Part shown: positions 1-20,574 of the stretch, piece by piece
How positions within the stretch are numbered: the first letter of the stretch is position 1
Layout of the letters: each line of letters begins with the position of its first letter
Source: Parcubacteria group bacterium
Lineage (GTDB): Bacteria; Patescibacteriota; Minisyncoccia; Moranbacterales; UBA9337
Reading direction: 5' to 3'
Assembly (NCBI GenBank): GCA_041662245.1
Contig: JBAZSW010000005.1
Coordinates: 1 to 50,444, forward strand
Length of the DNA stretch: 50,444 nucleotides
Made by a program: the position numbers and the translations under genes
Notes under the pieces: generated by a model
Told to the model about the DNA's origin: nothing
What the model saw: the letters and a program-made list of their open reading frames with translations, nothing else
Database searches by the model: none

Positions 1-1241
1 ATGATTTTGAAAAACTTTATGGAGATAATATAGATAATAAGGAGGAGCTGGATAAATTTTTAACGGGAGATGAAGGTAAAAGAAGCGATCCTGATTTTGA
101 CGATACTGACTCACCCAATGTTCTAAGTAATAGCTTATTGGGACAAGCTAATGACATTCATGATAATCTCTTGGATAAGTGGAGTGCTCCCATTGGCACA
201 GAAGTGATTCAGATTGCTGGTTGGGGCTTGGATACTATAGCGGGGATAAAATATGATGATTGTGATATTGTTTTTTGTCCCGATAAACTTAGTAATTTGG
301 ACAGAGAATTAATCTTTAAAAAAGATGGAGATGCTACAGTTGTTATTCCCAGTGCGATTATTATGAATGACGGAGAGATTTATTATGTAGATATGAAACT
401 CTATAATAGTTATGGTGAATTTAATAAAAACAGGGAACATGCCAATATTCTTGAAATCAATTCCCTTCAAGAATTTATCAAAAACATCTTAAATAACAAC
501 AGAGATTTGCCAAGTTATATCACTACAGTAAAACCGGAAGTTACGAATGAAGATGAAAGTCTGCGTTATCGAATGCATTCCCCAGTAGCAGTGCATCTTT
601 ATGACGAAAATAATAACCATACAGGACTCACAGATAATCTCAATCCTAATTCTGACTTAACTTACCATGAAGAAAATATCCCCAACTCCTACTACATAGA
701 ATTTGGAGAAACTAAATATCTGGGTAGTCCCAAAGATGGAAATATCAAAGTAGAATTAATTGGTGAAGACACTGGCACTTTTACCTTTGAGATAGATGCA
801 CTCAAAGGAGAGGATGTGGATAAAACTACAGTCTTTAAAGACGTACCAGTCATTAAAGATATGAAGGCAGATATAGATATATCTCAAAATATTGGTATAA
901 TGGATATAGATTGGAATAATGATGATAAAGTAGATATCACAATTAATACAGAGGAAGTAAATTCTGTACCAAAAGCTTCTTTGGAAATTCTCGAAGAAAT
1001 TATCAAGTTTTCCAAAATTAATCCAATCTTAAAAAATCTTTTTCTCAATGAGCTCAGGGTGGCTGAAAAACAAATAGCAAAAGGAAAAAATAAAATAGCA
1101 GGGCAGATACTGGAAATTTTAGAAAAACAAATTGAGACATTTAGTGATAAAAAAATGATGAAAAAGCTTAAAATCAATAAAGTTGAAGCTGAAAATCTAA
1201 TCAAAATAATCGAAACAATTCGTTTAAATTTAATTAAGTAA
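1..1241 (+). CDS. 5'-truncated secreted protein; the C-terminal part resembles a PGAP1/LCAT-type alpha/beta-hydrolase (lipase/esterase) and is followed by a helical tail
   Basis: Frame 3 is open from base 3 to TAA 1239-1241, so the track ORF 138..1241 is only the part after an internal TTG. KKDGDATVVIPSA and NREHANILE resemble the catalytic Asp (GDGTV) and His blocks of PGAP1/LCAT-like hydrolases. The last ~50 aa are reused in downstream repeats. Confidence 0.5.
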   Translation, partial: DFEKLYGDNIDNKEELDKFLTGDEGKRSDPDFDDTDSPNVLSNSLLGQANDIHDNLLDKWSAPIGTEVIQIAGWGLDTIAGIKYDDCDIVFCPDKLSNLDRELIFKKDGDATVVIPSAIIMNDGEIYYVDMKLYNSYGEFNKNREHANILEINSLQEFIKNILNNNRDLPSYITTVKPEVTNEDESLRYRMHSPVAVHLYDENNNHTGLTDNLNPNSDLTYHEENIPNSYYIEFGETKYLGSPKDGNIKVELIGEDTGTFTFEIDALKGEDVDKTTVFKDVPVIKDMKADIDISQNIGIMDIDWNNDDKVDITINTEEVNSVPKASLEILEEIIKFSKINPILKNLFLNELRVAEKQIAKGKNKIAGQILEILEKQIETFSDKKMMKKLKINKVEAENLIKIIETIRLNLIK

Positions 1242-1246
1242 AAAAT

Positions 1247-1666
1247 ATGAATTATAAAAAAAAGATTTATTGGGGGGTTGCAATTAGTGTGGGAGCATTT
1301 TTTTTAAGTATTGTCTTAGCTAAGCCGGAAATTTTTGGATTGTGTAATTATAATGACATGAAATGTATTTATAATTATATAGATATTTTTGATAGTATAG
1401 CACAATTTGTTGGATTATTTTCTATAGCATTTTTTATTATTTTTTCAATAATATTATTTTGTAAAGAGTTAGTTTTCAATTACTGGAAAAAATTTGCTAA
1501 AATATTTTTATCTGTAGCAATAATTCTAATTTTAATTACACCAACTCAATACGGAGGATTTGTTGGTATTGATAAAGAAATGGTTACTTGGGGTTTGGCT
1601 AGTTTATTTCTAATTAGTAGTCTTGGGATAATAATTTGGAAATCAATTCAGTTGAGAAAAAAATAG
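1247..1666 (+). CDS. small multi-pass membrane protein, paralog 1 of a local family (shared block VFNxWKxFA)
   Basis: ATG lies 5 nt after the upstream stop. The 139-aa product has several hydrophobic segments. KELVFNYWKKFAKIF is shared with 2065..2484 and 2518..2802, and the C-terminal LISSLGIIIWKSIQLRKK is identical to that of 2518..2802. Confidence 0.65.
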   Translation: MNYKKKIYWGVAISVGAFFLSIVLAKPEIFGLCNYNDMKCIYNYIDIFDSIAQFVGLFSIAFFIIFSIILFCKELVFNYWKKFAKIFLSVAIILILITPTQYGGFVGIDKEMVTWGLASLFLISSLGIIIWKSIQLRKK

Positions 1667-1812
1667 AACAAGTATCAATCTGGATGAGTTCGCTTTTCCT
1701 AATCATTAGCTTAGCTCTTATTATTATTTAGCAGATTAAAGAAAGAAAATCTTTGAAATAAAATAAAAACAAATTGCAAGGCTATAGCCATAGTCACTCA
1801 TTTTTTAAATTT

Positions 1813-1855
1813 AAAAGTGTCACTTTTGTCCACGTGCGACTGGATTGACACTTTT
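1813..1855. other. perfect 10-bp inverted repeat AAAAGTGTCA / TGACACTTTT around a 23-nt loop, inside the repeated spacer
   Basis: Read directly from the sequence. An identical copy lies at 2949..2991. It is followed by an unusually purine/GC-rich block (GTGGTAGTGAGGACAGGAGTGGCGTGGAGAGGAGTGAAG). Confidence 0.8.
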
Positions 1856-2053
1856 GCTGTGGTAGTGAGGACAGGAGTGGCGTGGAGAGGAGTGAAGAAG
1901 AATAAGGTGGCAGGACAAATCTTGGAAATAGTAGAAAAACAAATTGAAACATTTAGTGATAAAAAAATGTTAAATAAACTCAGAATCAATAAAATTGAAG
2001 CTGAAAACCTAATAAAAATAATCGAAACTATTCGTTTAAATTTAATTAAATAA
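1817..2053 (+). pseudogene. orphan 3' cassette: a copy of the last ~50 codons of the 1..1241 gene fused to unrelated 5' sequence
   Basis: KKNKVAGQILEIVEKQIETFSDKKMLNKLRINKIEAENLIKIIETIRLNLIK matches the tail of the upstream gene. The first ~25 codons (from GTG) have no counterpart there. It could instead be expressed as a 78-aa protein. Confidence 0.45.
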
Positions 2054-2064
2054 AAATAAAAAAT

Positions 2065-2484
2065 ATGGATTATAGAAAAAAAATATGGTTGATTTTTCTG
2101 GTAACATTATTGATAACTATAAGTGTGTATCTAAATAGATCTTTCACTTCTTTGGGTAGCTCCTTGTATTATTTTTCTTTGATATTGTCAGCTATTTTGT
2201 TTGTGATGTTATTCTTGAAAGAAGAAGTTTTTAATACATGGAAGAGATTTGCGATTATTTATGTATTTGTAGCTATGCTTATTATTAGTTTTTCACCTGG
2301 GGGTGGTGGGTTTATTCCATTCGGTTATAGAGATTTTTTTAGTTATTATTTTCCGATATCTCTATTTACAACAAGTATATTTATAACAATAAAATATATT
2401 CATAAATGGAGTCTTCCTATAATTATTTTACTTGGACATTTCGCAGGTATGATAATTTGGTATATTATTGCGGTACTCATTTGA
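2065..2484 (+). CDS. small multi-pass membrane protein, paralog 2 of the local family
   Basis: ATG lies 11 nt after the tail-cassette stop. MDYRKKIW parallels MNYKKKIY, and the KEEVFNTWKRFAIIY block is present. 139 aa, hydrophobic throughout. Confidence 0.65.
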   Translation: MDYRKKIWLIFLVTLLITISVYLNRSFTSLGSSLYYFSLILSAILFVMLFLKEEVFNTWKRFAIIYVFVAMLIISFSPGGGGFIPFGYRDFFSYYFPISLFTTSIFITIKYIHKWSLPIIILLGHFAGMIIWYIIAVLI

Positions 2485-2517
2485 GCACATTTTAAATAGC
2501 AGAGACGTAACAAGAAG

Positions 2518-2802
2518 GTGATGATTAAAAAATCAGGAAATAAATTGATAATTAGTGCCCCTTTCTTAATTTCTGTTTCTATTCTCCTTTTATTCTTTAA
2601 AGATTATGTTTTTAATATATGGAAAAAATTTGCGATTGTATTTGTGGTTATTTCGGTAGCTATTATTTCACTTGCTCCAGAAATTAGTGAAGGATTCATA
2701 GAATATAGTAAAAAATATCTCTCCTGGAGATTATCAGAATTATTTTTAATTAGTAGTCTTGGGATAATAATTTGGAAATCAATTCAGTTGAGAAAAAAAT
2801 AG
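2518..2802 (+). CDS. small membrane protein, paralog 3 (shorter; the C-terminus is identical to paralog 1)
   Basis: KDYVFNIWKKFAIVF block and the same C-terminal LISSLGIIIWKSIQLRKK. The start is GTG 2518 or ATG 2521. Confidence 0.6.
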   Translation: MMIKKSGNKLIISAPFLISVSILLLFFKDYVFNIWKKFAIVFVVISVAIISLAPEISEGFIEYSKKYLSWRLSELFLISSLGIIIWKSIQLRKK

Positions 2803-3189
2803 AACAAGTTTCCATCTGGATGAGTTCGCTTTTCCTAATTAGTAGTTTGATTCTTATTATTATTTGGCAGATTAAAGAAAGAAAATCTTTGAAATAAAAT
2901 AAAAACAAATTACAAAGCTATATCCATAGTCACTCATTTTTTAAATTTAAAAGTGTCACTTTTGTCCACGTGCGACTGGATTGACACTTTTGCTGTGGTA
3001 GTGAGGACAGGAGTGGCGTGGAGAGGAGTGAAGAAGAATAAGATGGCAGGGTAGATACTGGAAATTTTAGAAAAACAGATGGAAATGTTTAGTGATAGAA
3101 ATATGCCAAAAAAACTTAGAATAAATAAAGCAGAAGCTGAAAACCTGATAAAAATAATCGAAACTATTCGTTTAAATTTAATTAAGTAA
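2740..3189 (+). repeat. segmental repeat copy b (~450 bp), partner of 1604..2053
   Basis: Same order of parts: gene 3' end, decayed helix remnant, hairpin 2949..2991, purine-rich block, tail cassette. Confidence 0.85.
3033..3189 (+). pseudogene. degenerate third copy of the hydrolase-gene tail, with an in-frame TAG
   Basis: KNKMAG*ILEILEKQMEMFSDRNMPKKLRINKAEAENLIKIIETIRLNLIK. TAG 3052-3054 replaces the CAG of the parent copy and is in frame with TAA 3187-3189. Confidence 0.6.
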
Positions 3190-3199
3190 AAATAGAAAT

Positions 3200-3280
3200 A
3201 TGAATTATAGAAAAATAACATATATTTGTAGTTGTGAGTGGGCGTTATTTTTAGTAATTATAATGCCAAAAGACCTTTAA
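3200..3280 (+). pseudogene. truncated 5' remnant of a membrane-protein paralog (26 codons, MNYRKITYI...)
   Basis: It sits after a tail copy in the same position as 1247 and 2065, and has the same MNY(K/R)K start. It stops at TAA 3278-3280. Confidence 0.45.
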
Positions 3281-3314
3281 ATAGGGACGCGCCTTGGTGG
3301 GTGTGTCCTTATTT
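3279..3314 (+). terminator. hairpin AAATAGGGAC / GTCCTTATTT followed by a T-rich tract; probable end of the cassette region
   Basis: 10-bp stem with one G-U pair and a 16-nt loop, followed by GATTTTATTT. Confidence 0.4.
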
Positions 3315-3367
3315 GATTTTATTTGGATAAGTGCGATAATGGATAGAGCTTTAGGAGAAGTTTTTAA

Positions 3368-4510
3368 TTGTCTAAATATCAAAAAATTATGGAAGAAGCG
3401 ATAAAATTATCTAAAAAATTGGGAGGAAAAATTGAAGTTAATTCCAAACAAAAATTGACTAAAGAAAATTTAGCAGTGCTATATACCCCTGGAGTAGCTA
3501 GTGTTTCTAATGCGATTGCTCGAGATAAAAACTTATCTTTCGACTACACCATTCGTAAAAATACAGTAGCGGTTATTTCTGACGGAAGTGCTGTCTTGGG
3601 ACTGGGTAATATCGGACCAGAAGCAGCTCTGCCTGTAATGGAGGGTAAAGCACTTTTATTTAAAGAATTGGCAGGGGTAAATGCCTTTCCGATTGTGATT
3701 GATACGCAAGATTCTGACAAAATTATTGAAATTATCAAAAATATTGCTCCGACTTTTGGCGGGATAAATCTGGAGGATATTTCAGCACCGAGATGTTTTA
3801 AAATTGAAGAAAAATTAAAAAAAGAATTAAATATTCCGGTGTTTCATGATGATCAACACGGAACAGCCATTGTAGTTTTGGCAGGATTAATCAATGCACT
3901 TAAGGTGATTAATAAAAAAATGGGTAAAATTAAAATTGTAATTAGTGGAGTGGGAGCAGCAGGAGTGGCGATTGCCAAGTTGCTCATTGCCTATGGCGCT
4001 AAAAATATCATAATGGTGGACAGCCAAGGAATTATTTTTAAAGAAAGAGATGGCGGACTAAATGATTCCAAAATGGAAATTGCCAAAATTACTAATCCTC
4101 AAAATTTAATGGGGACTATCCGAGATGCTCTTTGTGGGGCAGATGTTTTCATTGGAGTTTCGGCACCCAATTTGGTAAATAATGTAGATATTTCTAAGAT
4201 GAATAAAAACGCTATAGTATTTGCCATGGCCAATCCTGTGCCGGAGATTATGCCTGAGTTAGCTAAACAGGGTGGGGCTAAAATTGTGGCTACGGGAAGC
4301 TCTCGATACCCTAATCAGCTTAATAATGTTTTGGTTTTTCCAGGAATTTTTTTGGGGGCTTTAGGCAAAAGAGTGAGATTGATAACTACCGAACATAAAC
4401 TAAAAGCAGCTCAAGTTTTGGCGGGACTAGTAAAAAAACCAACAGCTAATAAAATTATTCCCAATGCTCTAGATAAAAGAGTAGCCAAGAAAATAGCGGA
4501 AATATTTTAG
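3368..4510 (+). CDS. NAD(P)-dependent malic enzyme (short, about 380 aa)
   Basis: LYTPGVA, ISDGSAVLGLGNIGP, LPVMEGKALLFK, FGGINLEDI, PVFHDDQHGTAIV and SGVGAAG blocks. Track start is TTG 3368; ATG 3389 (MEEAIK) is an alternative. Confidence 0.9.
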   Translation: MSKYQKIMEEAIKLSKKLGGKIEVNSKQKLTKENLAVLYTPGVASVSNAIARDKNLSFDYTIRKNTVAVISDGSAVLGLGNIGPEAALPVMEGKALLFKELAGVNAFPIVIDTQDSDKIIEIIKNIAPTFGGINLEDISAPRCFKIEEKLKKELNIPVFHDDQHGTAIVVLAGLINALKVINKKMGKIKIVISGVGAAGVAIAKLLIAYGAKNIIMVDSQGIIFKERDGGLNDSKMEIAKITNPQNLMGTIRDALCGADVFIGVSAPNLVNNVDISKMNKNAIVFAMANPVPEIMPELAKQGGAKIVATGSSRYPNQLNNVLVFPGIFLGALGKRVRLITTEHKLKAAQVLAGLVKKPTANKIIPNALDKRVAKKIAEIF

Positions 4511-4515
4511 TGTTG

Positions 4516-4700
4516 CTACGAATTACGAATTAGTACGAATTTACGAATTCTGGTATTGAAAAATTCTAACAATACGATGGTGTGCTAGTTTGCGCTAACT
4601 TTAAAAATCTTAAGAACTTTAAAAACTATTGCCCATTCGTAATTTCGCCCGTCTGCAACGCTATAGCAACTGCGAGCAGGTATAAGTTCGTAATTCGTAG
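4516..4700. mobile_element. MITE-like 185-bp element with 14-bp terminal inverted repeats (CTACGAATTACGAA / TTCGTAATTCGTAG)
   Basis: Perfect inverted repeats at 4516-4529 and 4687-4700. ACGAATT words stutter at the left end. An internal 33-nt module (4648..4680) recurs inside the Elp3-like CDS. Confidence 0.6.
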
Positions 4701-4775
4701 AGGATTTGAAAAATAAAATTAAGTATGCTAAGATGATGGGTGTAAAATAATTAAATAATTAATAATAAAATCAAT

Positions 4776-5330
4776 ATGGTAGAAAATCACGTGGCTTCTC
4801 ATTTTCATAGTATTCCTCAGGATAAAGCTCCGGAAGTTTTAAATTTAATAGTGGAAATTCAAAAAGGGGACATGAATAAGTATGAGTACAACAAAGAATA
4901 TGGAGTGTTGGAATTAGACAGAGTTCTTTATGGACCGACTTTCTATCCGGTAAATTATTGTGATGTGCCCAATACTTGGAACACAGGAGATGAAGATCCG
5001 CTGGATGCTGTAGTATTTAGCTCAATGCCGATAATTCCAGGAGCTTTAGTAAAAGGAAGAGTAGTGGGAATGATGGAGATGGAGGATAATGGAGAAGTAG
5101 ATCATAAAATAATTTGTGTTAATGCCAAAGATCCTCGTTATGAGCATGTCGTTCACGTGGATGAACTTACTCCCTATGAAAGAAAAGATCTAAAGACTTT
5201 TATGGAAATTTATAAAATTCCCCAGACTGGTAAAGATAGCGTAAAAGTGGGAAGATTTTTGGGACCGGAGGAAGCTTATAAAAATATCAGGGAAGCGCAA
5301 GAAGAATATAAAAAGAAATTTTTAAGCTAA
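4776..5330 (+). CDS. ppa: inorganic pyrophosphatase (family I)
   Basis: EIQKGDMNKYEY, LDRVLY, YPVNYCDVP and GDEDPLDAVV blocks. Confidence 0.9.
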   Translation: MVENHVASHFHSIPQDKAPEVLNLIVEIQKGDMNKYEYNKEYGVLELDRVLYGPTFYPVNYCDVPNTWNTGDEDPLDAVVFSSMPIIPGALVKGRVVGMMEMEDNGEVDHKIICVNAKDPRYEHVVHVDELTPYERKDLKTFMEIYKIPQTGKDSVKVGRFLGPEEAYKNIREAQEEYKKKFLS

Positions 5331-5550: not shown

Positions 5551-6405
5551 ATGCAGAATAAAAAAGTAATTGTAGCCAAAAATGCAGGTTTTTGTTTTGG
5601 AGTAAAAAGAGCTGTTGATATGGTAGATGATTTATTGAAGGAAGGAAGAGAAATTTATGTCATCGGAGAGTTAGTACACAATAATCAAGTGATTGAAACT
5701 TTGACAAAAAAAGGACTAAAAACCGTAGAAAACTTAGATGATATTCCCAATGATGGAACCATGGTTATCAGAAGTCACGGAGCTTCAATTAAGATTATCA
5801 ACGAGGCTCGGTCAAAAGGTATCGAAATTATTGATGCCACCTGTCCATTTGTAAATAAGGCTAGAATAGTTGCAAACGATTTTTATAAAAAGGATTATAA
5901 TATTTTAATTTGTGGAGATAAGAATCATGCTGAAATAGTTGGAATTAATTCTTTGACAGAAAATTCAGCTAAAATTGTAAATGATATTAATCAAATTAAA
6001 GATATTAATTTTGAAAAAAGTATTGTAGGAGTAATGAGTCAAACTACTTACAAACTTACTTTTCTAAAGGAAGTTGTTTTGGCGCTTTTGGATCGGGGAT
6101 TAAAGAAAATAGTAATAGAAAATACTATTTGCCTCGATAGCACTACTAAGCAAACAGAAATAAAAGATTTAGCCAAAAAAGTGGATGTAATGATCGTGGT
6201 GGGGGGAAAATCATCCAGTAATACTAATAAATTAGCGGAAATTAGCTTAGCTTCTGGCGCACAGACTTATCATATTGAAATAGCCGATGAATTAAAAAAG
6301 GATTGGTTTGTGGGAGCAAATAAAATTGGGGTAGCAGCGGGGGCTTCTACAGCACAGTTTTTGATAGATGCGGTGGTTAGCGGGATTGAAAAAATGGTGG
6401 AATAA
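5551..6405 (+). CDS. ispH: 4-hydroxy-3-methylbut-2-enyl diphosphate reductase
   Basis: AGFCFGVKRAV, VHNNQV, IRSHG, DATCPFV, MSQTT, NTIC and VVGGKSSSNT blocks. ATG 5551 (MQNKKVIV) fits the family N-terminus better than the track start at TTG 5482. Confidence 0.9.
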   Translation: MQNKKVIVAKNAGFCFGVKRAVDMVDDLLKEGREIYVIGELVHNNQVIETLTKKGLKTVENLDDIPNDGTMVIRSHGASIKIINEARSKGIEIIDATCPFVNKARIVANDFYKKDYNILICGDKNHAEIVGINSLTENSAKIVNDINQIKDINFEKSIVGVMSQTTYKLTFLKEVVLALLDRGLKKIVIENTICLDSTTKQTEIKDLAKKVDVMIVVGGKSSSNTNKLAEISLASGAQTYHIEIADELKKDWFVGANKIGVAAGASTAQFLIDAVVSGIEKMVE

Positions 6406-6438: not shown

Positions 6439-6744
6439 ATGGTACATATGAAAAAGAATATTAAGAAAAATATAGAAAAAATATATAAGGCGGATGAAGT
6501 TTTGATTATGCTCGAAAGCATTGATGATAATGTCGCCGTTATAGCTGAACAACATCTCAGTATAAATAATCGCTTAGACAGTATCGATAATCGTTTGGAT
6601 AATATGCAATCAGATTTAGATATAGTAAAGAGTGATGTTTCAGATATTAAGTATGATTTAAGACAAAAAGTTAGCTATGATGAATTTGAAAAGATGGAAA
6701 AAAGAGTGCTTAAATTAGAGAAGCTTGTTTCTGCAAAATTTTAA
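6439..6744 (+). CDS. small coiled-coil protein, function unknown
   Basis: 101 aa with heptad-like NRLDSIDNRLDNMQSDLDIVKSDVSDIK. A terminator follows. Confidence 0.6.
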   Translation: MVHMKKNIKKNIEKIYKADEVLIMLESIDDNVAVIAEQHLSINNRLDSIDNRLDNMQSDLDIVKSDVSDIKYDLRQKVSYDEFEKMEKRVLKLEKLVSAKF

Positions 6745-6773
6745 TAAAAATTATACATATAATCAATAAAAAC

Positions 6774-6801
6774 AATGGGCAAAATTTTCTGCTCATTTTT
6801 T
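6774..6801 (+). terminator. intrinsic terminator
   Basis: AATGGGCA-aaattttc-TGCTCATT followed by TTTT. Confidence 0.5.
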
Positions 6802-6811
6802 ATTTTTTTGT

Positions 6812-6841
6812 TTGCATGAAAATGAATGAATGTGGTATAAT
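6812..6841 (+). promoter_or_regulatory. sigma70-like promoter: TTGCAT, 18-nt spacer, TGgTATAAT (extended -10)
   Basis: Read directly from the sequence, about 80 nt upstream of the 6923 start. Confidence 0.5.
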
Positions 6842-6922
6842 AAATTAATTTAAAAAAGGAGGACTAAAATAAGTTTACAAAACATATCTTGATAATTTTC
6901 AGTTACAGAAAAATTATACAAT

Positions 6923-7534
6923 ATGGATATAAAAACAAAAATATTTTGGTTGGTAATCGGACTTTTATTAGTATCCTCTTTTGCTTTGACTTTTTATCGT
7001 TATATAATCAAAAAAGATTATATGATTCAGGCACAGATGGATTGCGATCCTTATACGGAAACTTGTTTTGTCTGGAAATGTGACCCTGCTAGTGATGTAG
7101 ATGGAGAAAAATGTACCGGTGACGCGGAGAATGATATTTGGTATTACAAACTTATAAAAAGAAATGCTAGCCTAATTCCCGATTGCGATCCTACGGATGA
7201 AAATTGTGAAGCATTGGCTTGTGAAAATAATGAGCCTGAATGTCACTTTATATTATGTGATGAAACCAATAAGGAGGAGCTGGGTTCAGAAGAGTGTACT
7301 GATCCGATTAAATATTCGTTAGAAAATCCAATGGAAGAAGATGCTGTCTGTGAGGAGGGTGATGCGGAATGTTTCAATAATGCCCAAGATAATGCTGAGG
7401 GCAATGATGCCAGTAGTGATGAAGCGGAGGGCGAAGAAGAATCAATGACTCAAACTACTCAAGACGTTATTTCATCTCAGGTAGTGCCAGAAGATGAAGC
7501 TAACGATAAGGGTGATTTGCCAGTAGTTAAATAA
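6923..7534 (+). CDS. membrane-anchored, cysteine-rich, highly acidic exported protein
   Basis: N-terminal TM segment (IFWLVIGLLLVSSFALTFY), then many Cys in C-x-spaced pairs and an acidic D/E-rich tail. Confidence 0.65.
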   Translation: MDIKTKIFWLVIGLLLVSSFALTFYRYIIKKDYMIQAQMDCDPYTETCFVWKCDPASDVDGEKCTGDAENDIWYYKLIKRNASLIPDCDPTDENCEALACENNEPECHFILCDETNKEELGSEECTDPIKYSLENPMEEDAVCEEGDAECFNNAQDNAEGNDASSDEAEGEEESMTQTTQDVISSQVVPEDEANDKGDLPVVK

Positions 7535-7629
7535 TTTTTTGAAATTCGGGCTATTGACAAAAGAGTTTTTTGGTGATATAATTTCAAGTTGAGCTTCAAC
7601 GCCTAATTTGGTAATTATGGAAAAATTCA

Positions 7630-8274
7630 ATGGAAATTGTGAACAGTTTAGATGATTATGGAACCAAAAAAATAATAGCAATAGTAATATTAGTATTGAT
7701 TGGTGCTCTCATTTTTGAAAAACAAAGAAACATTATTCTTGGAGCTGGTTTCTATAGAGGATTAAGTTGGGTGTTTGATAACCCAATTTGGATTGCAGTC
7801 GAATTATTGTGGGGATTTCGTGGTGTTATAGGAATGGCTATTGTGGCAGTTTTGATAAACATAGGACTGTTTATATATTTTAGAAATAAAGATGCGAAAT
7901 TTGTTGTTTGGAATTCACTGAAAGGTTTTTCAGAAAAAGAATTGGAATATAAAAATAAATTTAAAGACTGGAAAAATAATAAAACTCCTTTAAAATTTAT
8001 ATTAGTCATAGGCACTTATATTCCGATGAAAGCATTTTTTCTGCTTCTGAAGGTTATAAAGATTCCTTTTTGGGGTAATTTTTTTGCGCTTATTATGCTT
8101 TCTATCTTCGAAGATCCTTTTGTTGCGACTACTTATATCAAAGATGGCAATAAAAAACATTTAGATTTTAAAATTTGCGGTGTTTTGTTTTTAAGTATCC
8201 TAATTAGTATTGGTTATTGGTTAATTAGAAATGGTTTAATTACAGAATTTATAATAAGGCCCGTAATATTTTAA
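7630..8274 (+). CDS. multi-pass membrane protein, function unknown
   Basis: 214 aa with several hydrophobic segments. Confidence 0.6.
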   Translation: MEIVNSLDDYGTKKIIAIVILVLIGALIFEKQRNIILGAGFYRGLSWVFDNPIWIAVELLWGFRGVIGMAIVAVLINIGLFIYFRNKDAKFVVWNSLKGFSEKELEYKNKFKDWKNNKTPLKFILVIGTYIPMKAFFLLLKVIKIPFWGNFFALIMLSIFEDPFVATTYIKDGNKKHLDFKICGVLFLSILISIGYWLIRNGLITEFIIRPVIF

Positions 8275-13659: not shown

Positions 13660-15054
13660 ATGAAATTGAACCAAAAAATAAAAAATAAAAATAAATATTT
13701 CAAAAAAGGAGTTTCTATCGTAGAGGCTTTGGTTTTGATTTTTGTTTTTTCGATAATAACGATATCTTTTTATTCGGTTTTTAGCGTAGGTTCGAAATAT
13801 ATAATTGGTTCTAAAAATAAAATTATTGCCACCTCTTTAGCTAATGAAAGAATGGAAATGCTTCGAAATTTGGCTTATGATAGTGTCGCTACAATAGGGG
13901 GTATTCCTAACGGTCCTATCGATCCTGATGAAAATATCACAGTAGGAGGTAAGATATTTCGAGTAACTACAGATGTTCGTTTTTATGATGACCCAGCAGA
14001 TGGTATTTTTGATGGTTCGCCTTTTGATAATGTTTCTAATGATTATAAGATTGCTGAAGTGGTGGTTTCTTGGGGTGATGGTGGTGAAAGCGAGCGAGCT
14101 ACTCTCAGTTCTAGATTCGTGCCTCCTGGAGTAGAGAATAGTGTGGGAGGAGGAACTTTTTCTATCAATTCAATTGATTATGCAGGTAACCCTGTTCCTA
14201 ACGTAACAGTTAATATTTATAATAATCAGATTTCTCCAACAGTTAATTACACGACGCATACTAGTTCAAATGGCAATCTCCTTTTGCAAGGAGTTCCGGG
14301 AGATATTAATCAAGATTATCAAATTACAATGAGCAAATCCGGATATGAAACAGCTGTTACGTATTCGCCAGCGACAGCTGGATTTATACCTTATGATGCT
14401 CATAGCAATATCATAGAGGGGGCCATGAATCAAAAGACAATGATAATTGATTTACTTTCAAACTTAGTGATAAAATCAAAAAATTCTTTTGGAGAAGATT
14501 TGCCGGATGTTTCTTTTGATTTAACAGGAGGAAGAAGATTGGATGATGGAACAACTGACCCGGGGATTTATGCTTTTGATCAAACTGTAGATACGGGTAG
14601 TGACAGTGAATTCTCAATAGGAAGTGCTAGTGCAGGTAAATATGTTTTAAAAAACTTTTCTTTTTCCAGTGGGGACTATGAGTTCAGAAAGGTTAGTGTG
14701 GGAGATGATTTAAATTCCAGTACTATAAATCTTGTTCCGGGCACAAGCCTTAGTACTAATATGATATTTATGGATAAGAATATTGATTCTGCTTATATAA
14801 ATGTAAAAGATTCCAATACGGGGTCAGTAATTGTAGGAGCGTCAGTGGAATTAAAAAATACCACGCTGAGCTATGACGTTACTCTTGTAACCGATAAATA
14901 TGGATATGTTTATTTTCCAGAAACCATTGCGTCGCCTCTTCAAAATGGAGAAACTTACGATATTTCGGTGACCGCTACCGGTTATACAAGTGGTAGTGAC
15001 AATGTAATTGTAAATAAATTTACCACCAAGGATATAACTTTAGTGGTAGAATAA
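13660..15054 (+). CDS. large type IV pilin-like (pseudopilin) protein with carboxypeptidase-regulatory-like beta-sandwich domains
   Basis: Strong SD (AAAGGAGGAGA). Prepilin signal KKG|VSIVEALVLIF with Glu at +5. Two segments resemble CarboxypepD_reg (GNPVPNVTVNIY...SNGNLLLQGVP...SKSGYE and GSVIVGASVELK...TDKYGYVYFP...TATGYT). Confidence 0.75.
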   Translation: MKLNQKIKNKNKYFKKGVSIVEALVLIFVFSIITISFYSVFSVGSKYIIGSKNKIIATSLANERMEMLRNLAYDSVATIGGIPNGPIDPDENITVGGKIFRVTTDVRFYDDPADGIFDGSPFDNVSNDYKIAEVVVSWGDGGESERATLSSRFVPPGVENSVGGGTFSINSIDYAGNPVPNVTVNIYNNQISPTVNYTTHTSSNGNLLLQGVPGDINQDYQITMSKSGYETAVTYSPATAGFIPYDAHSNIIEGAMNQKTMIIDLLSNLVIKSKNSFGEDLPDVSFDLTGGRRLDDGTTDPGIYAFDQTVDTGSDSEFSIGSASAGKYVLKNFSFSSGDYEFRKVSVGDDLNSSTINLVPGTSLSTNMIFMDKNIDSAYINVKDSNTGSVIVGASVELKNTTLSYDVTLVTDKYGYVYFPETIASPLQNGETYDISVTATGYTSGSDNVIVNKFTTKDITLVVE

Positions 15055-15065
15055 TTTTAAAAAAA

Positions 15066-15680
15066 GTGATGGTCTGTAATTTTAGAAGAAAATATAAGAA
15101 GGGAATGACTATTGTGGAATTAATAATTACTATGGGGATATTTTCATTGGTAATGATTGGCGTAAGTCAACTTTTCTTAAAATCTTGGCAGAACTATAAT
15201 TTTGTTATGCATACCAATGACTCATCTGTGGCCGCTAATAAAGGAGTAAGCGATTTAGTCAATGTTCTAAGGAGGGTGAGCGAGGCAGATAATGGCAGCT
15301 ATGCGGTGACAAGCGCAAATAGTTTTGACTTGAAGATTTATAGTGATATAGACAAGGACAATGTTACTGAAAAAATTCATTATTATTTAAATGGAACTAG
15401 TTTGATGGTGGGAATAAGTAATCCCAGTGGTTTTCCTCCGACTTATCCTTCTGGAGATGACACTTCAAAGGTTGTAATTAATAATGTGGTCAATACTTCA
15501 TCTCAGCCTTTATTTTATTATTATGATGGGAGCAATAATGCAATTAGTGCACCGGTTGGTGCTATAAATACTGTTAGGATGGTCAAGATAAATCTTGTAA
15601 TTTATCGTAAAGAAGGTAATCTGACCATAGAATCTTACGCTTCAATGCGGAATTTAAGTGATCATGATGCTATAAAATAA
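15066..15680 (+). CDS. minor pseudopilin (prepilin-type N-terminal cleavage/methylation domain)
   Basis: KKG|MTIVELIITMGIFSLVMIGV with Glu at +5. 204 aa. Confidence 0.75.
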   Translation: MMVCNFRRKYKKGMTIVELIITMGIFSLVMIGVSQLFLKSWQNYNFVMHTNDSSVAANKGVSDLVNVLRRVSEADNGSYAVTSANSFDLKIYSDIDKDNVTEKIHYYLNGTSLMVGISNPSGFPPTYPSGDDTSKVVINNVVNTSSQPLFYYYDGSNNAISAPVGAINTVRMVKINLVIYRKEGNLTIESYASMRNLSDHDAIK

Positions 15681-15686
15681 TTTTTT

Positions 15687-17123
15687 ATGAATACTTTTGA
15701 GAAAAAAATAAAATATTTATCAACTAAACAGGGCTCAGTTTTAGCTTATACTTTGATAATAATTTCAATAATTTCTATATTTTTGACAGCCTCTTTACGA
15801 GTTGTAGTGAGCAATATTCAATATGGCATAAATAGAGAATCAAAAGAGGAAGCTCTTCAAGTAGCTGAAGCAGGTGTTTATTTCTATAGATGGTATTTAG
15901 CTCACCAAGTAGCAGGTTTAACCAAAAAGCAAATTAGACAGTTTTGGAATTTGGGTACTGCTTATGGAGTTAGCACTGCTTATGAAGATGATTTTAATGG
16001 AGTAGGCACTTATAGTATAGAAGTTATTCCACCCCAGTCCAATTCCACTATTGTTATTGCTACTGTTACAGGTTGGACTTATAAAAATCCTAATATGAGA
16101 AGAACAGTTAAGGTGCGTTTCAGACAACCATCTTGGAGTGAATTTTCGGTGCTATGCGATTCTGATATTCGTTTTGGATCAGGAACAGAAGTTTATGGTC
16201 CTATTCATTCTAATGGAGGTGTTAGATTTGATGCGATAGCGCATAACATAGTTAGTAGTGGTGTCGCTAAATATAATGATCCAGACCACAGTGGAGGAGA
16301 TGAGTTTGGCGTACATACCCATGATGCTCCTGTGGATCCGCTTCCCCCAAGTGCTGTTCCTAGTCGTACAGATGTTTTTATAGCTGGGAGAGAATTTCCG
16401 GTTCCCGTTAAAGATTTTAACGGAGTATTATCTGATATGGCCGATATGAAAAGTGAAGCAGGATGTACTAATGTGGGAACGTACTGTGCTAGTGACACTA
16501 TTTCTTCTGCCAATGGTAGATACTTTAATAATTCTGGTTATGGCAGGCACATTATTTTACGCACTGATGATACAATGCGTGTTTATCGGGTAACTAATTA
16601 TAATTCTACGACGGATGAAATTAGCAGTGAAGCCCCTTATGTAAGCTACTCAATTCCCGATGATGGAATAATTTTTGTAGAAGATAATGTTTGGGTAGAG
16701 GGAACTATTAGTGGAAAAAAAATAACTATTGTGGCTGCTGATTTGGCAGGAGGAGGAGATAGAGATGTTTTCATAAAAAAAGATATAAGGTATACTAATT
16801 ATGATGGAAGTGATATTATTGGTTTAGTAGCGCAAAAAGATATTGAAGTAACTAGAGATAGCAATAACTTTTTGAGAATTGATGGGGCATTATTAGCTCA
16901 GAGCGGAAGAGTAGGAAGGGATTGGTTTAGTTCAGCCTATGATAAAGATACTATTACCGTCAATGGATCAATCGCGACTAAATTAAGGTATGGTTTTGCT
17001 TATACGGATGGCACTGGCTATACTAATAGAAATCTTATTTTTGATAACAATTTATTGTATTTTCCACCACCTTATTTTCCAACGGGGACAGACTATGCAA
17101 TTGATTCTTGGGAAGAGTTGTAG
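15687..17123 (+). CDS. large PilX-like pilus-associated protein (N-terminal hydrophobic helix, no Glu+5)
   Basis: KQGSVLAYTLIIISIISIFLTASLRVV N-terminus. It lies in the operon between the pseudopilins and pilM. Confidence 0.6.
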   Translation: MNTFEKKIKYLSTKQGSVLAYTLIIISIISIFLTASLRVVVSNIQYGINRESKEEALQVAEAGVYFYRWYLAHQVAGLTKKQIRQFWNLGTAYGVSTAYEDDFNGVGTYSIEVIPPQSNSTIVIATVTGWTYKNPNMRRTVKVRFRQPSWSEFSVLCDSDIRFGSGTEVYGPIHSNGGVRFDAIAHNIVSSGVAKYNDPDHSGGDEFGVHTHDAPVDPLPPSAVPSRTDVFIAGREFPVPVKDFNGVLSDMADMKSEAGCTNVGTYCASDTISSANGRYFNNSGYGRHIILRTDDTMRVYRVTNYNSTTDEISSEAPYVSYSIPDDGIIFVEDNVWVEGTISGKKITIVAADLAGGGDRDVFIKKDIRYTNYDGSDIIGLVAQKDIEVTRDSNNFLRIDGALLAQSGRVGRDWFSSAYDKDTITVNGSIATKLRYGFAYTDGTGYTNRNLIFDNNLLYFPPPYFPTGTDYAIDSWEEL

Positions 17124-17191
17124 ATGTTTTGAAAAAAGTTTTTTGCAATTGTTTACAGACATAAAAAATAAAAATAAAACAAATAATAAGA

Positions 17192-18259
17192 ATGATATTT
17201 TTAAATAAAAAAATAATTGATTTTAAAGATGATGCCCTAGGCCTAAGCATTGAGGATGATAAGCTTAGAATTGTTAGAATTGAAGATAATAAAATTAAAA
17301 GTTTCAATTCGGTGTCTATTCCTGAGGGAGTGATTGTGGATGGAGAAATTATAAATAAAGATGAATTTTTTAAAGTATTGGATAAATTGATAAAAGGAGC
17401 TAGGCCCAAAAAAATAAAAACAAAAAAAGTTAGATTAGCACTTTCTGAATCAAAGTCTTTCTTACGATTGATTTCTATGCCTTCCATGAGCGAAAAGGAG
17501 CTTAACGAAGCTATAAAATGGGAAATAGAAGCTAATATTCCCCTTTCTCTTGATCAGGTTTATTATGATTGGCAATTAGTGGGAGATATTTTTGCTAATG
17601 ATGAAAATGGGGAAGTAAAAGTTTTGGTTTTAGCAGCTGCCAAGAGAATAGCTGATCAATATTTAGATATACTGGAAGAATTTGGCTTGGAAGTTATTGG
17701 TATTGAATCTGAAACAACGGCTCTAACTAGAAGTTTGTTAAGTGAGCATAGCGCTTTAAAAACATCTTTGATAATAAGTGTGGATAAAAATAAAACAAGT
17801 TTTATTTTTGCTATTCAGAACATTCCTTGTTTTGCTTCAAGTATTCCAATTTCAGAAAAGAACATCATAGGCGCAATAGCGAAAAAATTTAATATTTCAG
17901 ATGAAAAAGCTAAAGAAATTGAAGAGAAGGATGGCATTGGATCATTTTTTGAAGACGATGCGTTATTTGAAGCCATAAAGCCAATTTTGGATGGATTAGT
18001 AAATGAAACCAAAAAAACTATAAGTTTTTATTTGGATGGTTTAAAATATTCAGCTTCTATTGATAGAGTCATTATTTGTGGAAAAATGTCACAAGCTAAA
18101 GGATTGATTCCTTATCTATCAAGGAATTTAGAAATTGAAGTTATTCAGGGAGATGTAAGAGAAGGAATGTCATCTAGCGTTAAGGATATCCCAATAATTG
18201 AAAAAGATAAAGCTATAAAATACGCCACGGCAATTGGTTTGGCATTGGGAAATAAATAG
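17192..18259 (+). CDS. pilM: type IV pilus assembly protein PilM (actin-like ATPase fold)
   Basis: Size, position before PilN/PilO-like genes, N-terminal LGLSIEDDKLRIV and GIESETTAL-type blocks. Confidence 0.7.
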   Translation: MIFLNKKIIDFKDDALGLSIEDDKLRIVRIEDNKIKSFNSVSIPEGVIVDGEIINKDEFFKVLDKLIKGARPKKIKTKKVRLALSESKSFLRLISMPSMSEKELNEAIKWEIEANIPLSLDQVYYDWQLVGDIFANDENGEVKVLVLAAAKRIADQYLDILEEFGLEVIGIESETTALTRSLLSEHSALKTSLIISVDKNKTSFIFAIQNIPCFASSIPISEKNIIGAIAKKFNISDEKAKEIEEKDGIGSFFEDDALFEAIKPILDGLVNETKKTISFYLDGLKYSASIDRVIICGKMSQAKGLIPYLSRNLEIEVIQGDVREGMSSSVKDIPIIEKDKAIKYATAIGLALGNK

Positions 18260-18291
18260 AGATATTTTTTATTTGTATATTTTGATTTATT

Positions 18292-18855
18292 ATGAAAATA
18301 AGATTAAATCTTTTACCAAAAAGTAAGGAAAAAAAGATAAAAAATAAAAAAATATTAAAGTTCGTAATTTTGCAAGAGATTATGATAATTCTTATTACAG
18401 TTTTGTTTTTTGGCGTAGTAAAGGGAGTAGATGCTATTGCTAGTTTTCGTTTGGATAGTGTGAATAAACAAATTTCTTCAAATGGAGCAAAGGGGGATTA
18501 TGTTGAGATAAAAAAATACGAAAATGGATTGAAGGATGTGAGAGCGAAAACATATTCCATAAGCAAAATTCAGAAATTTAGCGTCGCATGGGCGCCAGTT
18601 TTGGATAAATTAGCCCAGGTCCTTCCTTCGGAGATTACATTGACTTCCATAGATGGAAGCGGGTACAACTTGCTATTGAAAGGAGTGGCGCAGAATAGGG
18701 ATATTTTAATAAAAATGAAAGAGGATATGCAAAAAAATGAATGTTTTAAAAATGTAGTTATTCCTTTAAATGATATTGTTTTAAGAGAGAATATCGAATT
18801 TGAATTAAAGCTTGATATTAACAAAGAATGTCTAAACAATTATGAAAAAAAATAA
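18292..18855 (+). CDS. pilN: PilN-like pilus assembly protein
   Basis: MKIRLNLLPKSKE N-terminus (INLLP motif), then a single TM segment. Confidence 0.6.
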   Translation: MKIRLNLLPKSKEKKIKNKKILKFVILQEIMIILITVLFFGVVKGVDAIASFRLDSVNKQISSNGAKGDYVEIKKYENGLKDVRAKTYSISKIQKFSVAWAPVLDKLAQVLPSEITLTSIDGSGYNLLLKGVAQNRDILIKMKEDMQKNECFKNVVIPLNDIVLRENIEFELKLDINKECLNNYEKK

Positions 18856-19558
18856 TAAATTTTTAATAAAATATAAAATATATATAATTATCGGAATTCT
18901 TTTTGTGATTTGGTTTTGTTTTTTATTTTTTATTATTATTCCCTCCATAAAGTCCCTAGAGGGTAATTTTGATCTCGTCCAAATGAGGCTTATTGATATG
19001 AAAACTAATGATGAAAAATTGAGTAAAATTTCATTATTGAGGGATAATTTTAGTAAAGTAGACAGCGAAAAAGGAAATTTAGACGTTATATTTTCAAAAG
19101 ATAATATTGTTGGTTTGGTTAAAGAGTTAGAAGCGATTGCTCAAGAAACGGGAAATAACGTGAGTATCTCAGTAAATGAAGATAATCAGGAAATAATAGA
19201 AGAAAATAAGAATAAGATAGATGCAAAAGAGAATGAATTATTAAAAGAATTGCCTACAAAAAGTTATTTTATGATAAAAATTAGTTTAGTGGGTGATTAC
19301 AATAGTCTAGTTAAGTTTGTAAATAAGTTGAATAATATAAAATATTATAATAGTGTAGTTTCTTTCAATATTTCTTCTAAAAAAATAACTATAGAAGATA
19401 AGAATAATAAAAATGATATTTCAAGTGGAGGAATTAGTTTGATGGGTAGTGGTGGAAGTAGTGATGTTACATTGCCAGAAGCAGAAAAGGAAAAATTAGT
19501 TTTAAGTTCTGATTTAGATGTAATATTTTATTCTTTAGAAAATGATAATGGAAAATAA
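18842..19558 (+). CDS. PilO-like pilus assembly protein
   Basis: Single N-terminal TM segment, a coiled coil, and overlapping start and stop with its neighbours (operon coupling). Confidence 0.45.
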   Translation: MKKNNKFLIKYKIYIIIGILFVIWFCFLFFIIIPSIKSLEGNFDLVQMRLIDMKTNDEKLSKISLLRDNFSKVDSEKGNLDVIFSKDNIVGLVKELEAIAQETGNNVSISVNEDNQEIIEENKNKIDAKENELLKELPTKSYFMIKISLVGDYNSLVKFVNKLNNIKYYNSVVSFNISSKKITIEDKNNKNDISSGGISLMGSGGSSDVTLPEAEKEKLVLSSDLDVIFYSLENDNGK

Positions 19559-19892
19559 AAAATTTAAATTAAAATTTAGCAAAGAAGATTTTGATATTAA
19601 TAAAATAAAAAATTCTGTTTTTGAATTTTTTCTAAATCACTCGGAGATATTGTTCATGATTTTTTTTGTTGGCATAGCTTCCTTCAGCGGATTTTTAATT
19701 TATAGATATATTTATTTTTCTTCTTGGAGTGAAGAAAGAAAAAAAACTTATTTACTGGAAGTGAAAAAAGGAGAGGTTGATTTTAATTTAAATGAATTTA
19801 ATGCGATAATTGAAAAAGTGAAGGAGCGGGACGCTGCGTATTCTGAAGATGATGTCGTGGAAGTTCGAGATATTTTTGGCGTTAAAAAATAA
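19542..19892 (+). CDS. small single-pass membrane protein, last gene of the pilus operon
   Basis: Overlaps the upstream gene. One TM segment (ILFMIFFVGIASFSGFLIY). Confidence 0.55.
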   Translation: MIMENKKFKLKFSKEDFDINKIKNSVFEFFLNHSEILFMIFFVGIASFSGFLIYRYIYFSSWSEERKKTYLLEVKKGEVDFNLNEFNAIIEKVKERDAAYSEDDVVEVRDIFGVKK

Positions 19893-20016: not shown

Positions 20017-20055
20017 GTGTTTTTTTGCTATTTTTTTATAAAGTTTTTTAGCAAG

Positions 20056-20127
20056 TGCTCTTGTCAGGACTCGAACCTGAAATGCTTGGTCCGAAGCCAA
20101 GTGTGATATCCATTTCACCACAAGAGC
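20056..20127 (-). tRNA. tRNA-Arg (anticodon TCG)
   Basis: Reverse complement GCTCTTG-TG-GTGA..TCAC-A-CTTGG-CTTCGGA-CCAAG-CATT-TCAGG-TTCGAGT-CCTGA-CAAGAGC-A folds as a cloverleaf. CCA is not encoded. Confidence 0.85.
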
Positions 20128-20166
20128 AATTTTACAGTAAATAATTTAATTTGAACTCTACACAGG

Positions 20167-20238
20167 GGCGATCACAGGGAATCGGACCCTGATACTCGGT
20201 ACCACAAACCGATGTTCTACCACTGAACTATGATCGCC
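20167..20238 (-). tRNA. tRNA-His (anticodon GTG), with G-1
   Basis: G(-1)GCGATCA...TCGGT-TTGTGGT-ACCGA...CAGGG-TCCGATT-CCCTG-TGATCGC-C. The extra 5' G pairs with C73, as is typical of tRNA-His. Confidence 0.9.
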
Positions 20239-20352
20239 ACTCTATAGACTTCTGTTTAATACTACCTAAAAATAGTAGCATATAAAATTGTGGAAATCAA
20301 GGGTTTCTTAAAATATAAAGAAAAATATTTTAAATAATATAGTGGTTAAAAT

Positions 20353-20495: not shown

Positions 20496-20574
20496 AAAAA
20501 ACACTATCCTTAATTGGATAGTGGTTTTAAATGGTTGTTGATACTGTTATATGTGCGCCGTGGGGGATTCGAAC
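20496..20574 (-). repeat. 78-bp direct repeat copy 2 (overlaps the 3' end of the intact tRNA-Lys)
   Basis: See 20353..20430. Hairpin at 20502..20523. Confidence 0.85.

Follow-up and report, generated by a model that had tools for sequence, protein, structure and literature searches.

Repeated lipase gene ends and membrane-protein partner genes at the start of a Parcubacteria contig

The start of contig JBAZSW010000005.1 (assembly GCA_041662245.1), from a Parcubacteria group bacterium, carries the 3′ part of a gene for an LCAT-family α/β-hydrolase, referred to here as the lipase, followed by an array in which the last codons of this gene recur, each time in front of a gene for a small membrane protein of a family that we call mem. 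The window, the whole 50,444-nt stretch that was analysed, is numbered on the forward strand, and coordinates refer to it unless another locus is named. The first base of the contig falls inside the lipase gene, whose reading frame stops at 1239–1241. Its final 51 codons, the tail, are found again twice downstream. A repeat search returned an ungapped 159-nt repeat in three copies (1086–1244, 1898–2056 and 3034–3192) that are 86% identical, and a 32-nt degenerate pattern for the core of the tail matched only the three tail sites, none being expected from 100 shuffles. The frame of the second copy is intact, while the third reads AAG AAT AAG ATG GCA GGG TAG, with TAG at 3052–3054 where the first copy has CAG. 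The distances from the tail stop to the ATG of the partner gene are 5, 11 and 10 nt for copies 1, 2 and 3. The repeat search and the list of open reading frames (ORFs) confirm the initial annotation on these points, namely two downstream copies of the tail, one intact and one with a stop codon, and a small membrane-protein gene 5–11 nt after each.

Further elements, which that annotation had missed, are visible between the tails (Table 1). One is a second repeat, D1, which is larger than the tail and abuts tails 2 and 3 directly; its two copies, 1604–1903 and 2740–3039, are 96% identical. Within this repeated spacer lie a G+C-rich hairpin, also overlooked before, and fragments of a partner-family paralogue (1669–1764 and 2802–2900) that match the end of a 137-residue partner gene, mem137, at another locus (L002; L-numbers denote metagenome loci). 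Another is memC, a partner-family gene lacking the first helix of its homologue at L001. The last 20 codons of memC and memA (LISSLGIIIWKSIQLRKK) are common to both, with about 97–98% nucleotide identity (1604–1666 and 2740–2802), which points to a second block of recombination at the 3′ ends of the mem genes. The mem genes of the window otherwise differ by 50–70%. Cassette 2, consisting of tail 2 and memB, looks from its sequence as if memB were still functional; memC and cassette 3 show progressive decay.

As the array stands at the very start of the contig, inside a gene that is repeated, and contains 300-nt repeats that are 96–100% identical, a chimeric or mis-joined assembly of several strains or loci might be considered, and the initial annotation had named an assembly artefact as a way in which the duplications might be explained away. 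The tails differ by 14–15% and the mem genes by far more, so they are not collapsed copies, and equivalent arrays are present in independent NCBI, JGI and ENA assemblies, one of them on 19 contigs. With the same layout recovered independently, this explanation is scarcely credible.

Table 1. Features of the array at the start of the window (dN/dS, ratio of non-synonymous to synonymous substitution rates)
Feature	Position	Strand	Remarks
LCAT-family α/β-hydrolase gene, 3′ 1.24 kb	1..1241	+	5′ end cut by contig edge; stop 1239–1241; resident full-length copy of the module; from ORF, homologues and AlphaFold2 model
Tail copy 1, last 51 codons and stop	1086..1241	+	Helices 3 and 4 of the C-terminal four-helix (FIMAH-like) domain
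memA, 139-residue four-helix membrane partner, resident	1247..1666	+	Starts 5 nt after the lipase stop; family hidden Markov model E=1.7e-55; AlphaFold2 model
Repeat D1, copy a	1604..1903	+	3′ end of memA, decayed mem137-type 3′ fragment (1669–1764) and G+C-rich hairpin (~1817–1905)
Orphan tail copy 2	1898..2053	+	Intact frame in a 78-codon ORF with GTG start (1817–2053); collinear and in frame with copy 1; dN/dS against copy 1 0.06
memB, 139-residue partner of a different subtype (no Cys pair, longer C-terminus)	2065..2484	+	Orphan here; L010 orthologue lies directly 3′ of a full-length lipase gene; dN/dS against the L010 resident copy 0.37
memC, 94-residue partner-family gene, 5′-truncated	2518..2802	+	Related to the L001 partner; final 20 codons common with memA through D1
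Repeat D1, copy b	2740..3039	+	96% identical to copy a; mem137-type fragment 2802–2900; hairpin ~2953–3041
Orphan tail copy 3, broken by TAG 3052–3054	3034..3189	+	Mosaic: 5′ part like copy 1, 3′ part like copy 2
Remnant of a fourth partner gene, MNYRK..., 26 codons, truncated	3200..3280	+	From ORF list
Terminator-like hairpin and T run	3277..3316	+	Closing element of the array, upstream of a malic-enzyme gene

The lipase gene and its membrane-protein partner

The lipase fragment in the window (1–1241) gives no match to Pfam and begins downstream of the nucleophile motif. Its homologues, which are 71–85% identical and come from assemblies of Candidatus Moranbacteria/Parcubacteria, carry the LCAT domain (PF02450), and the initial description of the gene as hydrolase-like is upheld through these relatives rather than by the window part itself. 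In full-length relatives PF02450 scores 69 bits against a cut-off of 21 and the GxSxG motif is present as GHSNGG. These proteins are 800–1,300 residues long, typically about 900, and consist of an N-terminal signal peptide, in many cases a right-handed β-helix, the LCAT α/β-hydrolase domain, a β-sandwich region and a C-terminal helical domain with weak matches to FIMAH; the earlier suggestion of a parent of the secreted lipase or esterase type agrees well with this architecture. The catalytic domain is central in the protein and the C-terminus is the conserved part. In the AlphaFold model of the window fragment four helices are predicted at residues 321–411 with a predicted local distance difference test (pLDDT) score of about 90, of which the tail forms only the last two. 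A PDB sequence search and Foldseek searches with the C-terminal part gave no significant match, and a literature search on FIMAH and on LCAT in bacteria or in the Candidate Phyla Radiation (CPR) produced nothing relevant. Along the lipase gene, synonymous sites are only modestly less conserved near the 3′ end (0.22 against about 0.4), and as such a drop is not peculiar to that end it was not used as evidence.

Some divergent lipases, termed type 2 (L093 1933–5226 and L087 3870–7178), have sub-threshold matches to the Pfam domain of Tle3, a phospholipase effector of type VI secretion, around the nucleophile elbow (25.5 and 18.8 bits, cut-off 27), which may reflect generic α/β-hydrolase similarity. 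The lipase gene is also the break point of many independent assemblies, at similar positions (window position 1, L001, L002, L008, L009, L011 and others), consistent with several near-identical lipase 5′ parts per genome. Close homologues of the lipase are found on short contigs labelled Bacteroidales, Sphingobacteriia and Campylobacterales (P0003, P0004 and L005); as these are 71–81% identical to Parcubacteria genes, the contigs are probably mis-binned.

The partner proteins belong to a family with 1,841 representatives at 50% identity. The AlphaFold2 model of memA consists of four long helices (pLDDT 89). According to the family alignment, the first loop carries a pair of cysteines, except in the memB subtype, the loop joining helices 2 and 3 carries a conserved VFxxWxKFA motif, and both ends of the protein are basic. 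Neither the mem proteins nor the tail ORF had a significant match in Pfam, NCBIfam or PADLOC, and neither a PDB sequence search nor Foldseek searches with memA found one. Two double-length proteins in the representative library, P0129 (290 residues) and P0151 (271 residues), contain two matched stretches each and are apparently fusions of tandem mem copies.

When 80 lipase-anchored metagenome loci were retrieved with a profile of the lipase, a mem-family ORF was found directly 3′ of the lipase gene in 71, with a modal gap of 4 nt. Eight of the nine loci lacking one are on contigs shorter than 6 kb, several of which end at or near the match, and the ninth is a 21-kb locus with a distant (33% identical) lipase. 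Conversely, all four successful look-ups anchored on mem led to an adjoining LCAT gene. The pair is also present, as a single unit, in a relative with 43% identity, and the flanking genes are ordinary housekeeping genes that differ between loci. By gene adjacency, therefore, the lipase and the four-helix mem protein of about 135 residues form a two-gene module that is widespread in Parcubacteria/CPR, and individual genomes carry several diverged versions of it in their sequences.

Orphan cassettes, recombination and the gene junction

Units of a lipase gene stub followed by a mem gene, with the rest of the lipase gene missing, are not confined to the window. They were found at L002/L004, L010, L012 (3′-truncated), L019, L031, L043, L047, L067 (a fragment) and L087–89/L093–94, that is in at least eight other independent lineages, with heterologous stub types among them. 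The stubs span from about 23 codons (the L067 fragment) to 115 codons, and, because both their spans and their 5′ junctions differ, they derive from separate events. None of the orphan cassettes surveyed contains an alternative catalytic or toxin domain; each consists only of the roughly 23–115 tail codons and the partner gene. In an unbiased subset of 35 informative loci, two or more mem genes were present in seven and a single unit in 28. The initial annotation had regarded single units in relatives, with an unvarying partner, as telling against an array of this kind. Single units do predominate, and the partner does vary between relatives.

That variation was seen when related genomes were surveyed, as the initial annotation had proposed, for the same tail beside different partners. 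Tail 2 and memB of the window are the counterpart of the resident tail and first mem gene of L010 (78% nucleotide identity), while the resident lipase 3′ end and memA of the window are the counterpart of an orphan cassette in L010, so that cassettes have been exchanged between orphan and resident positions and their order differs between related genomes. The orphan mem137 of L002 with its stub of about 95 nt has, at 95% identity, a resident counterpart in L087, made up of the end of a divergent 1,102-residue lipase gene and its mem, and behind that divergent module L087 itself carries a window-type stub (a 91-codon ORF) with a 131-residue partner, mem131. As a side observation, two near-identical groundwater contigs (L090 and L091, around 6450–7950) have different small-ORF gene calls downstream of the lipase–mem pair, which may be population-level variation of an array.

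Traces of recombination are visible within the tails, as had been suspected initially. At informative sites the 5′ part of tail 3 agrees with tail 1 and the 3′ part with tail 2, and the spacers flanking units 2 and 3 are 96–100% identical while tails 2 and 3 are only 85% identical. The orphan stubs of L087 and L093/L094 have their junction in common and are 99% identical over 90 nt, including a perfect 17-bp palindrome. Over the next 100 nt or so the L093/L094 stub matches the full-length lipase gene at L001, in the same genome (UBA9337), with 99% identity, compared with about 73% for the L087 orthologue, and the final 80 nt resemble neither L001 nor L087. By this pattern of identities the stretch of about 100 nt is a gene-conversion tract. 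Gene conversion also accounts for the clade-wise sharing of short peptides, AGQILEI being common to the three window tails and AAKILEI to the tails of L001, L002 and L010.

The palindrome (GTGATAAAATTATACGG/CCGTATAATTTTATCAC) coincides exactly with the orphan stub's 5′ junction in three genomes (L087 7706–7739, L093 ~5713–5746 and L094, where it is interrupted mid-way by a run of N, masked or gapped) and includes TATAAT and the GTG start of the annotated ORF of 89–91 residues.

The orphan tail ORFs, 78 residues long in the window and 89–91 in L087, L093 and L094, might themselves code for small helical proteins that have a separate role, for example in modulating the lipase or mem. Their frames are open over 31–115 codons in A+T-rich DNA, they are annotated by gene callers, and their dN/dS against the parental tails is low (0.06–0.07). 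Such values are accounted for by conversion from intact genes, which imports the constraint, and the orthologous orphan stubs of L002 and L012 are identical and so provide no test of selection after truncation. Several stubs, as in L002/L012, have no plausible start codon near the 5′ end, the four-helix domain is cut at arbitrary points, leaving two helices in the window stub, and tail 3 has a stop codon. A separate function for the tail ORFs seems improbable. The orphan mem genes, with dN/dS of 0.16–0.37, are on these estimates under purifying selection in their own right.

This last result bears on whether the arrays are simply neutral debris, left by tandem segmental duplication and partial deletion in a multi-copy family, with the orphans roleless and the additional mem genes heading for loss. 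A tandem duplication starting within the 3′ end of the lipase gene would yield exactly the observed layout; memC has degraded, as have tail 3 and the final remnant of a mem gene, the spacers hold paralogue fragments, most informative loci have one unit, and contigs often break in the lipase gene, as expected of a repeated family. The constraint on the orphan mem genes is difficult to reconcile with this. In some nine independent cases, moreover, the stub is short (at most 115 of about 900 codons) and never absent, which would not be expected of random breakpoints, cassettes of heterologous module types sit together, and one orphan cassette is conserved across three genomes. Debris of this kind is thus an unlikely, though not a negligible, explanation of the arrays as a whole.

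A reason for keeping the stub is suggested by the sequence at the gene junction. Of 64 non-redundant loci, 28 have the extended −10 motif TGnTAnnnT ending 4–10 nt ahead of the start of mem, the distance being exactly 6 nt in 21 of them, against a background of 22 in 382 ORFs (Fisher p=7e-14). In 23 loci the motif and the lipase stop codon overlap, and in four the motif falls beyond the stop, in the short spacer, which shows that coding for the C-terminal peptide is not enough to account for it. In the orphan cassettes of L047 and L031 such a box is retained at the right distance. Leaderless transcripts are generally recognised from sequence by a −10-like box some 6–7 nt upstream of the start codon. 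As in leaderless genes, TGnTAnnnT stands 6 nt before the mem start and a Shine–Dalgarno (SD) sequence is lacking, with GGAG/GAGG upstream of none of 63 non-redundant first-mem genes. Here, unlike in those genes, the box would overlap the stop and last sense codons of the gene upstream, tying the 3′ end of the lipase gene to mem. In general the last 20 or so lipase codons probably serve as the promoter of mem.

In the window's own clade, which is very A+T-rich, the strict motif is absent and only weak −10-like hexamers are found; a sigma-70 scan of the window gave sites no more numerous than in shuffled sequence. A block of about 70 nt, extending from the end of the tail across the junction to the first six codons of mem, is nearly invariant in 13 parental and orphan copies of this clade, whatever the mem subtype that follows, and most copies have TAAAAT 7–8 nt before the ATG. 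It is conceivable, though somewhat doubtful, that a mem promoter is embedded at this position in the window's clade as well.

Taken together, the extra cassettes derive from other modules, most of whose lipase gene would have been lost through recombination or deletion. A homology block made up of the conserved tail, the junction and the start of the mem coding sequence undergoes unequal crossing-over and gene conversion, and in this way cassettes are multiplied, lost, turned into chimeras and transferred between orphan and resident positions. The stub would be retained since it holds the promoter of mem itself (an extended −10 box giving a leaderless transcript and overlapping the lipase stop), and also since the breakpoints of recombination fall there. 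With this content each unit of stub and mem would be an autonomous, portable expression cassette. We consider it likely that the cassettes arose by recombination and displacement and that the stub was kept for its expression signals and homology.

The same homology raises the question of whether the variation is programmed, the tails being handles by which a selected recombination would swap the partner behind the expressed lipase and so generate heterogeneity in the population. The copies are collinear and in frame, so that a crossover between tails 1 and 2 at any position leaves an in-frame lipase gene followed by memB; cassette order varies between related genomes, and conversion tracts were seen. 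The copies are, however, direct repeats, and a crossover irreversibly deletes the cassette in between. No recombinase or invertase is found nearby, the cassettes appear to have their own promoters and so could all be expressed at once, and the parent protein would hardly change. Programmed variation is very unlikely on these grounds.

Possible roles of the partner and comparison with known arrays

The initial annotation had likened the locus to the orphan toxin/immunity arrays of polymorphic-toxin loci or to arrays of silent cassettes. The first likeness is apt in that this is a real array, with a secreted lipase-type parent, varied partners, exchange of cassettes and recombination in the tail. 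It fails in that the tail is neither a variable toxin nor a swappable effector module and no secretion apparatus beyond Sec is evident. In contact-dependent inhibition (CDI; cdiA-CT/cdiI) and Rhs loci, the orphan modules retain homology upstream of a variable toxin domain, which is swapped in. As in CDI and Rhs, a full gene is followed by tandem fragments, each with a coding piece of the parent and a small partner gene, and homology permits recombination. Here, unlike there, the piece retained is the conserved extreme C-terminus and a crossover changes the partner gene only. A polymorphic-toxin array with a conserved body and a variable C-terminal toxin after a motif was accordingly rejected, the tail being two helices of a four-helix domain. 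Silent cassettes as in antigenic variation (pilE/pilS, vlsE) are promoterless and partial; the cassettes here hold complete partner genes with putative promoters of their own, and the shared tail is the conserved region, so that this second likeness was abandoned. A diversity-generating retroelement was also rejected, since mismatches between the copies fall on all four bases in proportion to composition and are not adenine-specific; the 22 window ORFs that a Pfam scan covered included no reverse transcriptase, the remaining window ORFs being outside the scan.

Orphan immunity arrays that keep a 3′ remnant of a displaced effector gene are a closer precedent than CDI or Rhs. In type VI secretion system (T6SS) clusters of V. 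cholerae, arrays of orphan immunity genes result from effector displacement and include partial effector genes (Kirchberger et al. 2017, PMC5361080). There, as here, an effector-type gene (in one case a lipase) and its partner are followed by a string of extra partners, and these match partners that are paired with intact effectors elsewhere, here memB with L010 and the L002 mem137 with L087 (95% nucleotide identity). Partial effector genes and short conserved regions persist in both and homologous recombination makes mosaics. The present arrays differ in having no T6SS or dedicated delivery system, in that the partners belong to one family with four transmembrane helices (4-TM) and not to unrelated immunity types, and in that a stub is always present, apparently holding the partner promoter; toxicity and immunity would be attributed here by analogy.

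A second precedent is provided by the tandem immunity paralogues of type VII secretion systems (T7SS), esaG, tipC and tsaI, whose evolution proceeds through recombination in blocks of conserved sequence (Garrett et al. 2022, PMC9484751). In both cases non-identical partner paralogues lie downstream of a secreted toxin gene or its counterpart, tsaI also encoding membrane proteins, and conserved blocks at gene ends mediate recombination that leads to loss, expansion and chimeras. Shared blocks and recombination between paralogues are likewise found here, in the invariant junction block, the mosaic tail 3, the common 3′ end of memA and memC and the L093/L094 tract. Stubs of the toxin gene before each copy are not reported there, and the present block runs from the end of the upstream gene across the junction and through the first six partner codons.

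The pairing of a secreted α/β-hydrolase lipase gene with a small dedicated partner gene downstream is also that of Tle/Tli and LipA/Lif, with the sub-threshold Tle3 match of the type-2 lipases as a further likeness. Tli proteins act as inhibitors and are periplasmic or lipoproteins, and Lif combines a large chaperone domain with a single membrane anchor. The mem protein, by contrast, is predicted to be a compact four-helix membrane bundle with no relative detectable by sequence or structure searches.

On the strength of these analogies mem could shield the exposed membrane of the producer from its cognate lipase, and perhaps from the lipase variants of neighbours, in the manner of an immunity protein. 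That mem protects its own cell's membrane against the cognate lipase, and that the array is equivalent to arrays of orphan immunity genes, we put forward tentatively. CPR bacteria lack lipid synthesis for their membranes and are believed to acquire lipids, lysolipids among them, from other cells (bioRxiv 10.1101/465690). A surface phospholipase or acyltransferase with a β-helix of carbohydrate-binding type would fit such scavenging and would require self-protection.

The same background may be read in favour of a non-protective role, in which mem would be a membrane anchor or docking site for the C-terminal helical domain of the lipase, a maturation factor, or a route for the uptake of lysolipids or fatty acids set free by the enzyme from the membranes of a host. 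The pair is nearly universal and tightly linked, the tail belongs to a confidently predicted helical bundle that might be a docking domain, and the mem subtype goes together with the 3′ half of the tail, a linkage for which physical adjacency alone would account. As an anchor or uptake factor mem should be useless without the enzyme, and yet orphan mem genes are intact and constrained. Its extracellular loops are, besides, very short, and the most conserved motif, VFxxWxKFA, lies in the helix 2–3 loop, which would be cytoplasmic judging from the basic residues flanking the helices. A role of this kind is rather unlikely.

To return to protection by mem and to cassettes kept for their expression signals, several observations weigh against these proposals. 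Single units predominate. The decay of memC, tail 3 and the final mem remnant shows an array that is unevenly maintained. Toxins in arrays of this type are usually polymorphic in a way that the lipase is not, and the tail of the lipase is conserved. Neither a delivery system nor a mobile element was found near the loci, the neighbours in the 50-kb window and at the surveyed loci being housekeeping genes, and no dedicated secretion system (type V, T6SS or T7SS) is evident in the 50 kb of genome analysed, only Sec-type signal peptides. To our knowledge, the immunity proteins of lipase effectors are soluble or lipoprotein inhibitors, none of them 4-TM. In the metagenome-assembled genome of UBA9337, which has at least three lipase loci (L001, L002 and L094), every orphan type also has a resident lipase of the same type elsewhere in the genome, which fits plain redundancy as well as it does immunity to non-self. 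As to expression, the missing SD sequence is weak evidence since SD motifs are rare in these genomes generally (6% for GGAG/GAGG, 16% for a looser pattern), the promoter argument is transferred to the window from other clades because its own clade lacks the strict motif, and the low dN/dS of the stubs, being imported by conversion, is no proof that they are functional.

Read at its broadest, the module would be a hitherto unrecognised, toxin–immunity-like and Sec-dependent system of lipase and self-protection, widespread in CPR/Parcubacteria, with a leaderless promoter in the last codons and stop codon of the lipase gene and cassettes accumulated and exchanged by homologous recombination as a repertoire that would protect these episymbionts against membrane-attacking enzymes of their own and of their neighbours. 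This we regard as possible but doubtful. As far as the sequences indicate, the novelty lies in the protein families, in the lineage, in the lack of a specialised secretion system and in what looks like a partner promoter inside the last codons of the upstream gene. In bacteria that depend on others for membrane lipids, the locus bears both on how lipids are acquired and on how cells survive their own secreted lipases. The large secreted LCAT-type lipase and the four-helix family, with about 1,800 representatives and no database annotation, make up a conserved pair so far uncharacterised, and in its genome dynamics (orphan cassettes, gene conversion and exchange between genomes) it behaves as loci of conflict or immunity do. 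If the partner is protective, the pair would amount to a toxin–immunity-like system outside the known secretion-system contexts, in a major uncultivated radiation; if it is not, the pair would still be an enzyme–partner module relevant to lipid scavenging. An embedded promoter, if real, would provide a simple mechanistic reason for effector stubs and may apply to other orphan arrays.

The G+C-rich element and the remainder of the window

The hairpin elements that abut orphan tails 2 and 3 (1817–1905 and 2953–3041) have about 50% G+C in a region of about 27%, and the two copies are 100% identical. Folded as RNA, the element forms a long imperfect hairpin of about 20 bp with G–U pairs (z=−3.3). 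It matches no Rfam family, the scan of positions 1–5000 (E≤1) giving a single chance snoRNA match, and it has no BLAST counterpart in the other loci. By eye, part of it is like the hairpin downstream of mem137 in L087 (CCAGTCATTTTTTCCACGTGGGTGTGAATGACTGG). A 17-nt exact identity between the element (1842–1858 and 2978–2994) and the RIDTF region of the release-factor-1 gene prfA (33354–33370, minus strand) does not extend further and was set aside as probably due to chance.

Beyond the array, the window contains a gene for the type IV pilus assembly protein PilM (17192–18256), with neighbouring unannotated ORFs (13660–19892), and a cluster of tRNA genes for Arg, His and Lys on the minus strand (20055–20626). 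Up to about 42 kb nearly all ORFs of at least 100 residues that are free of overlap with a longer ORF are on the plus strand and the GC skew is strongly positive; from about 42 to 48 kb the skew levels off and the minus strand carries several of the ORFs listed.

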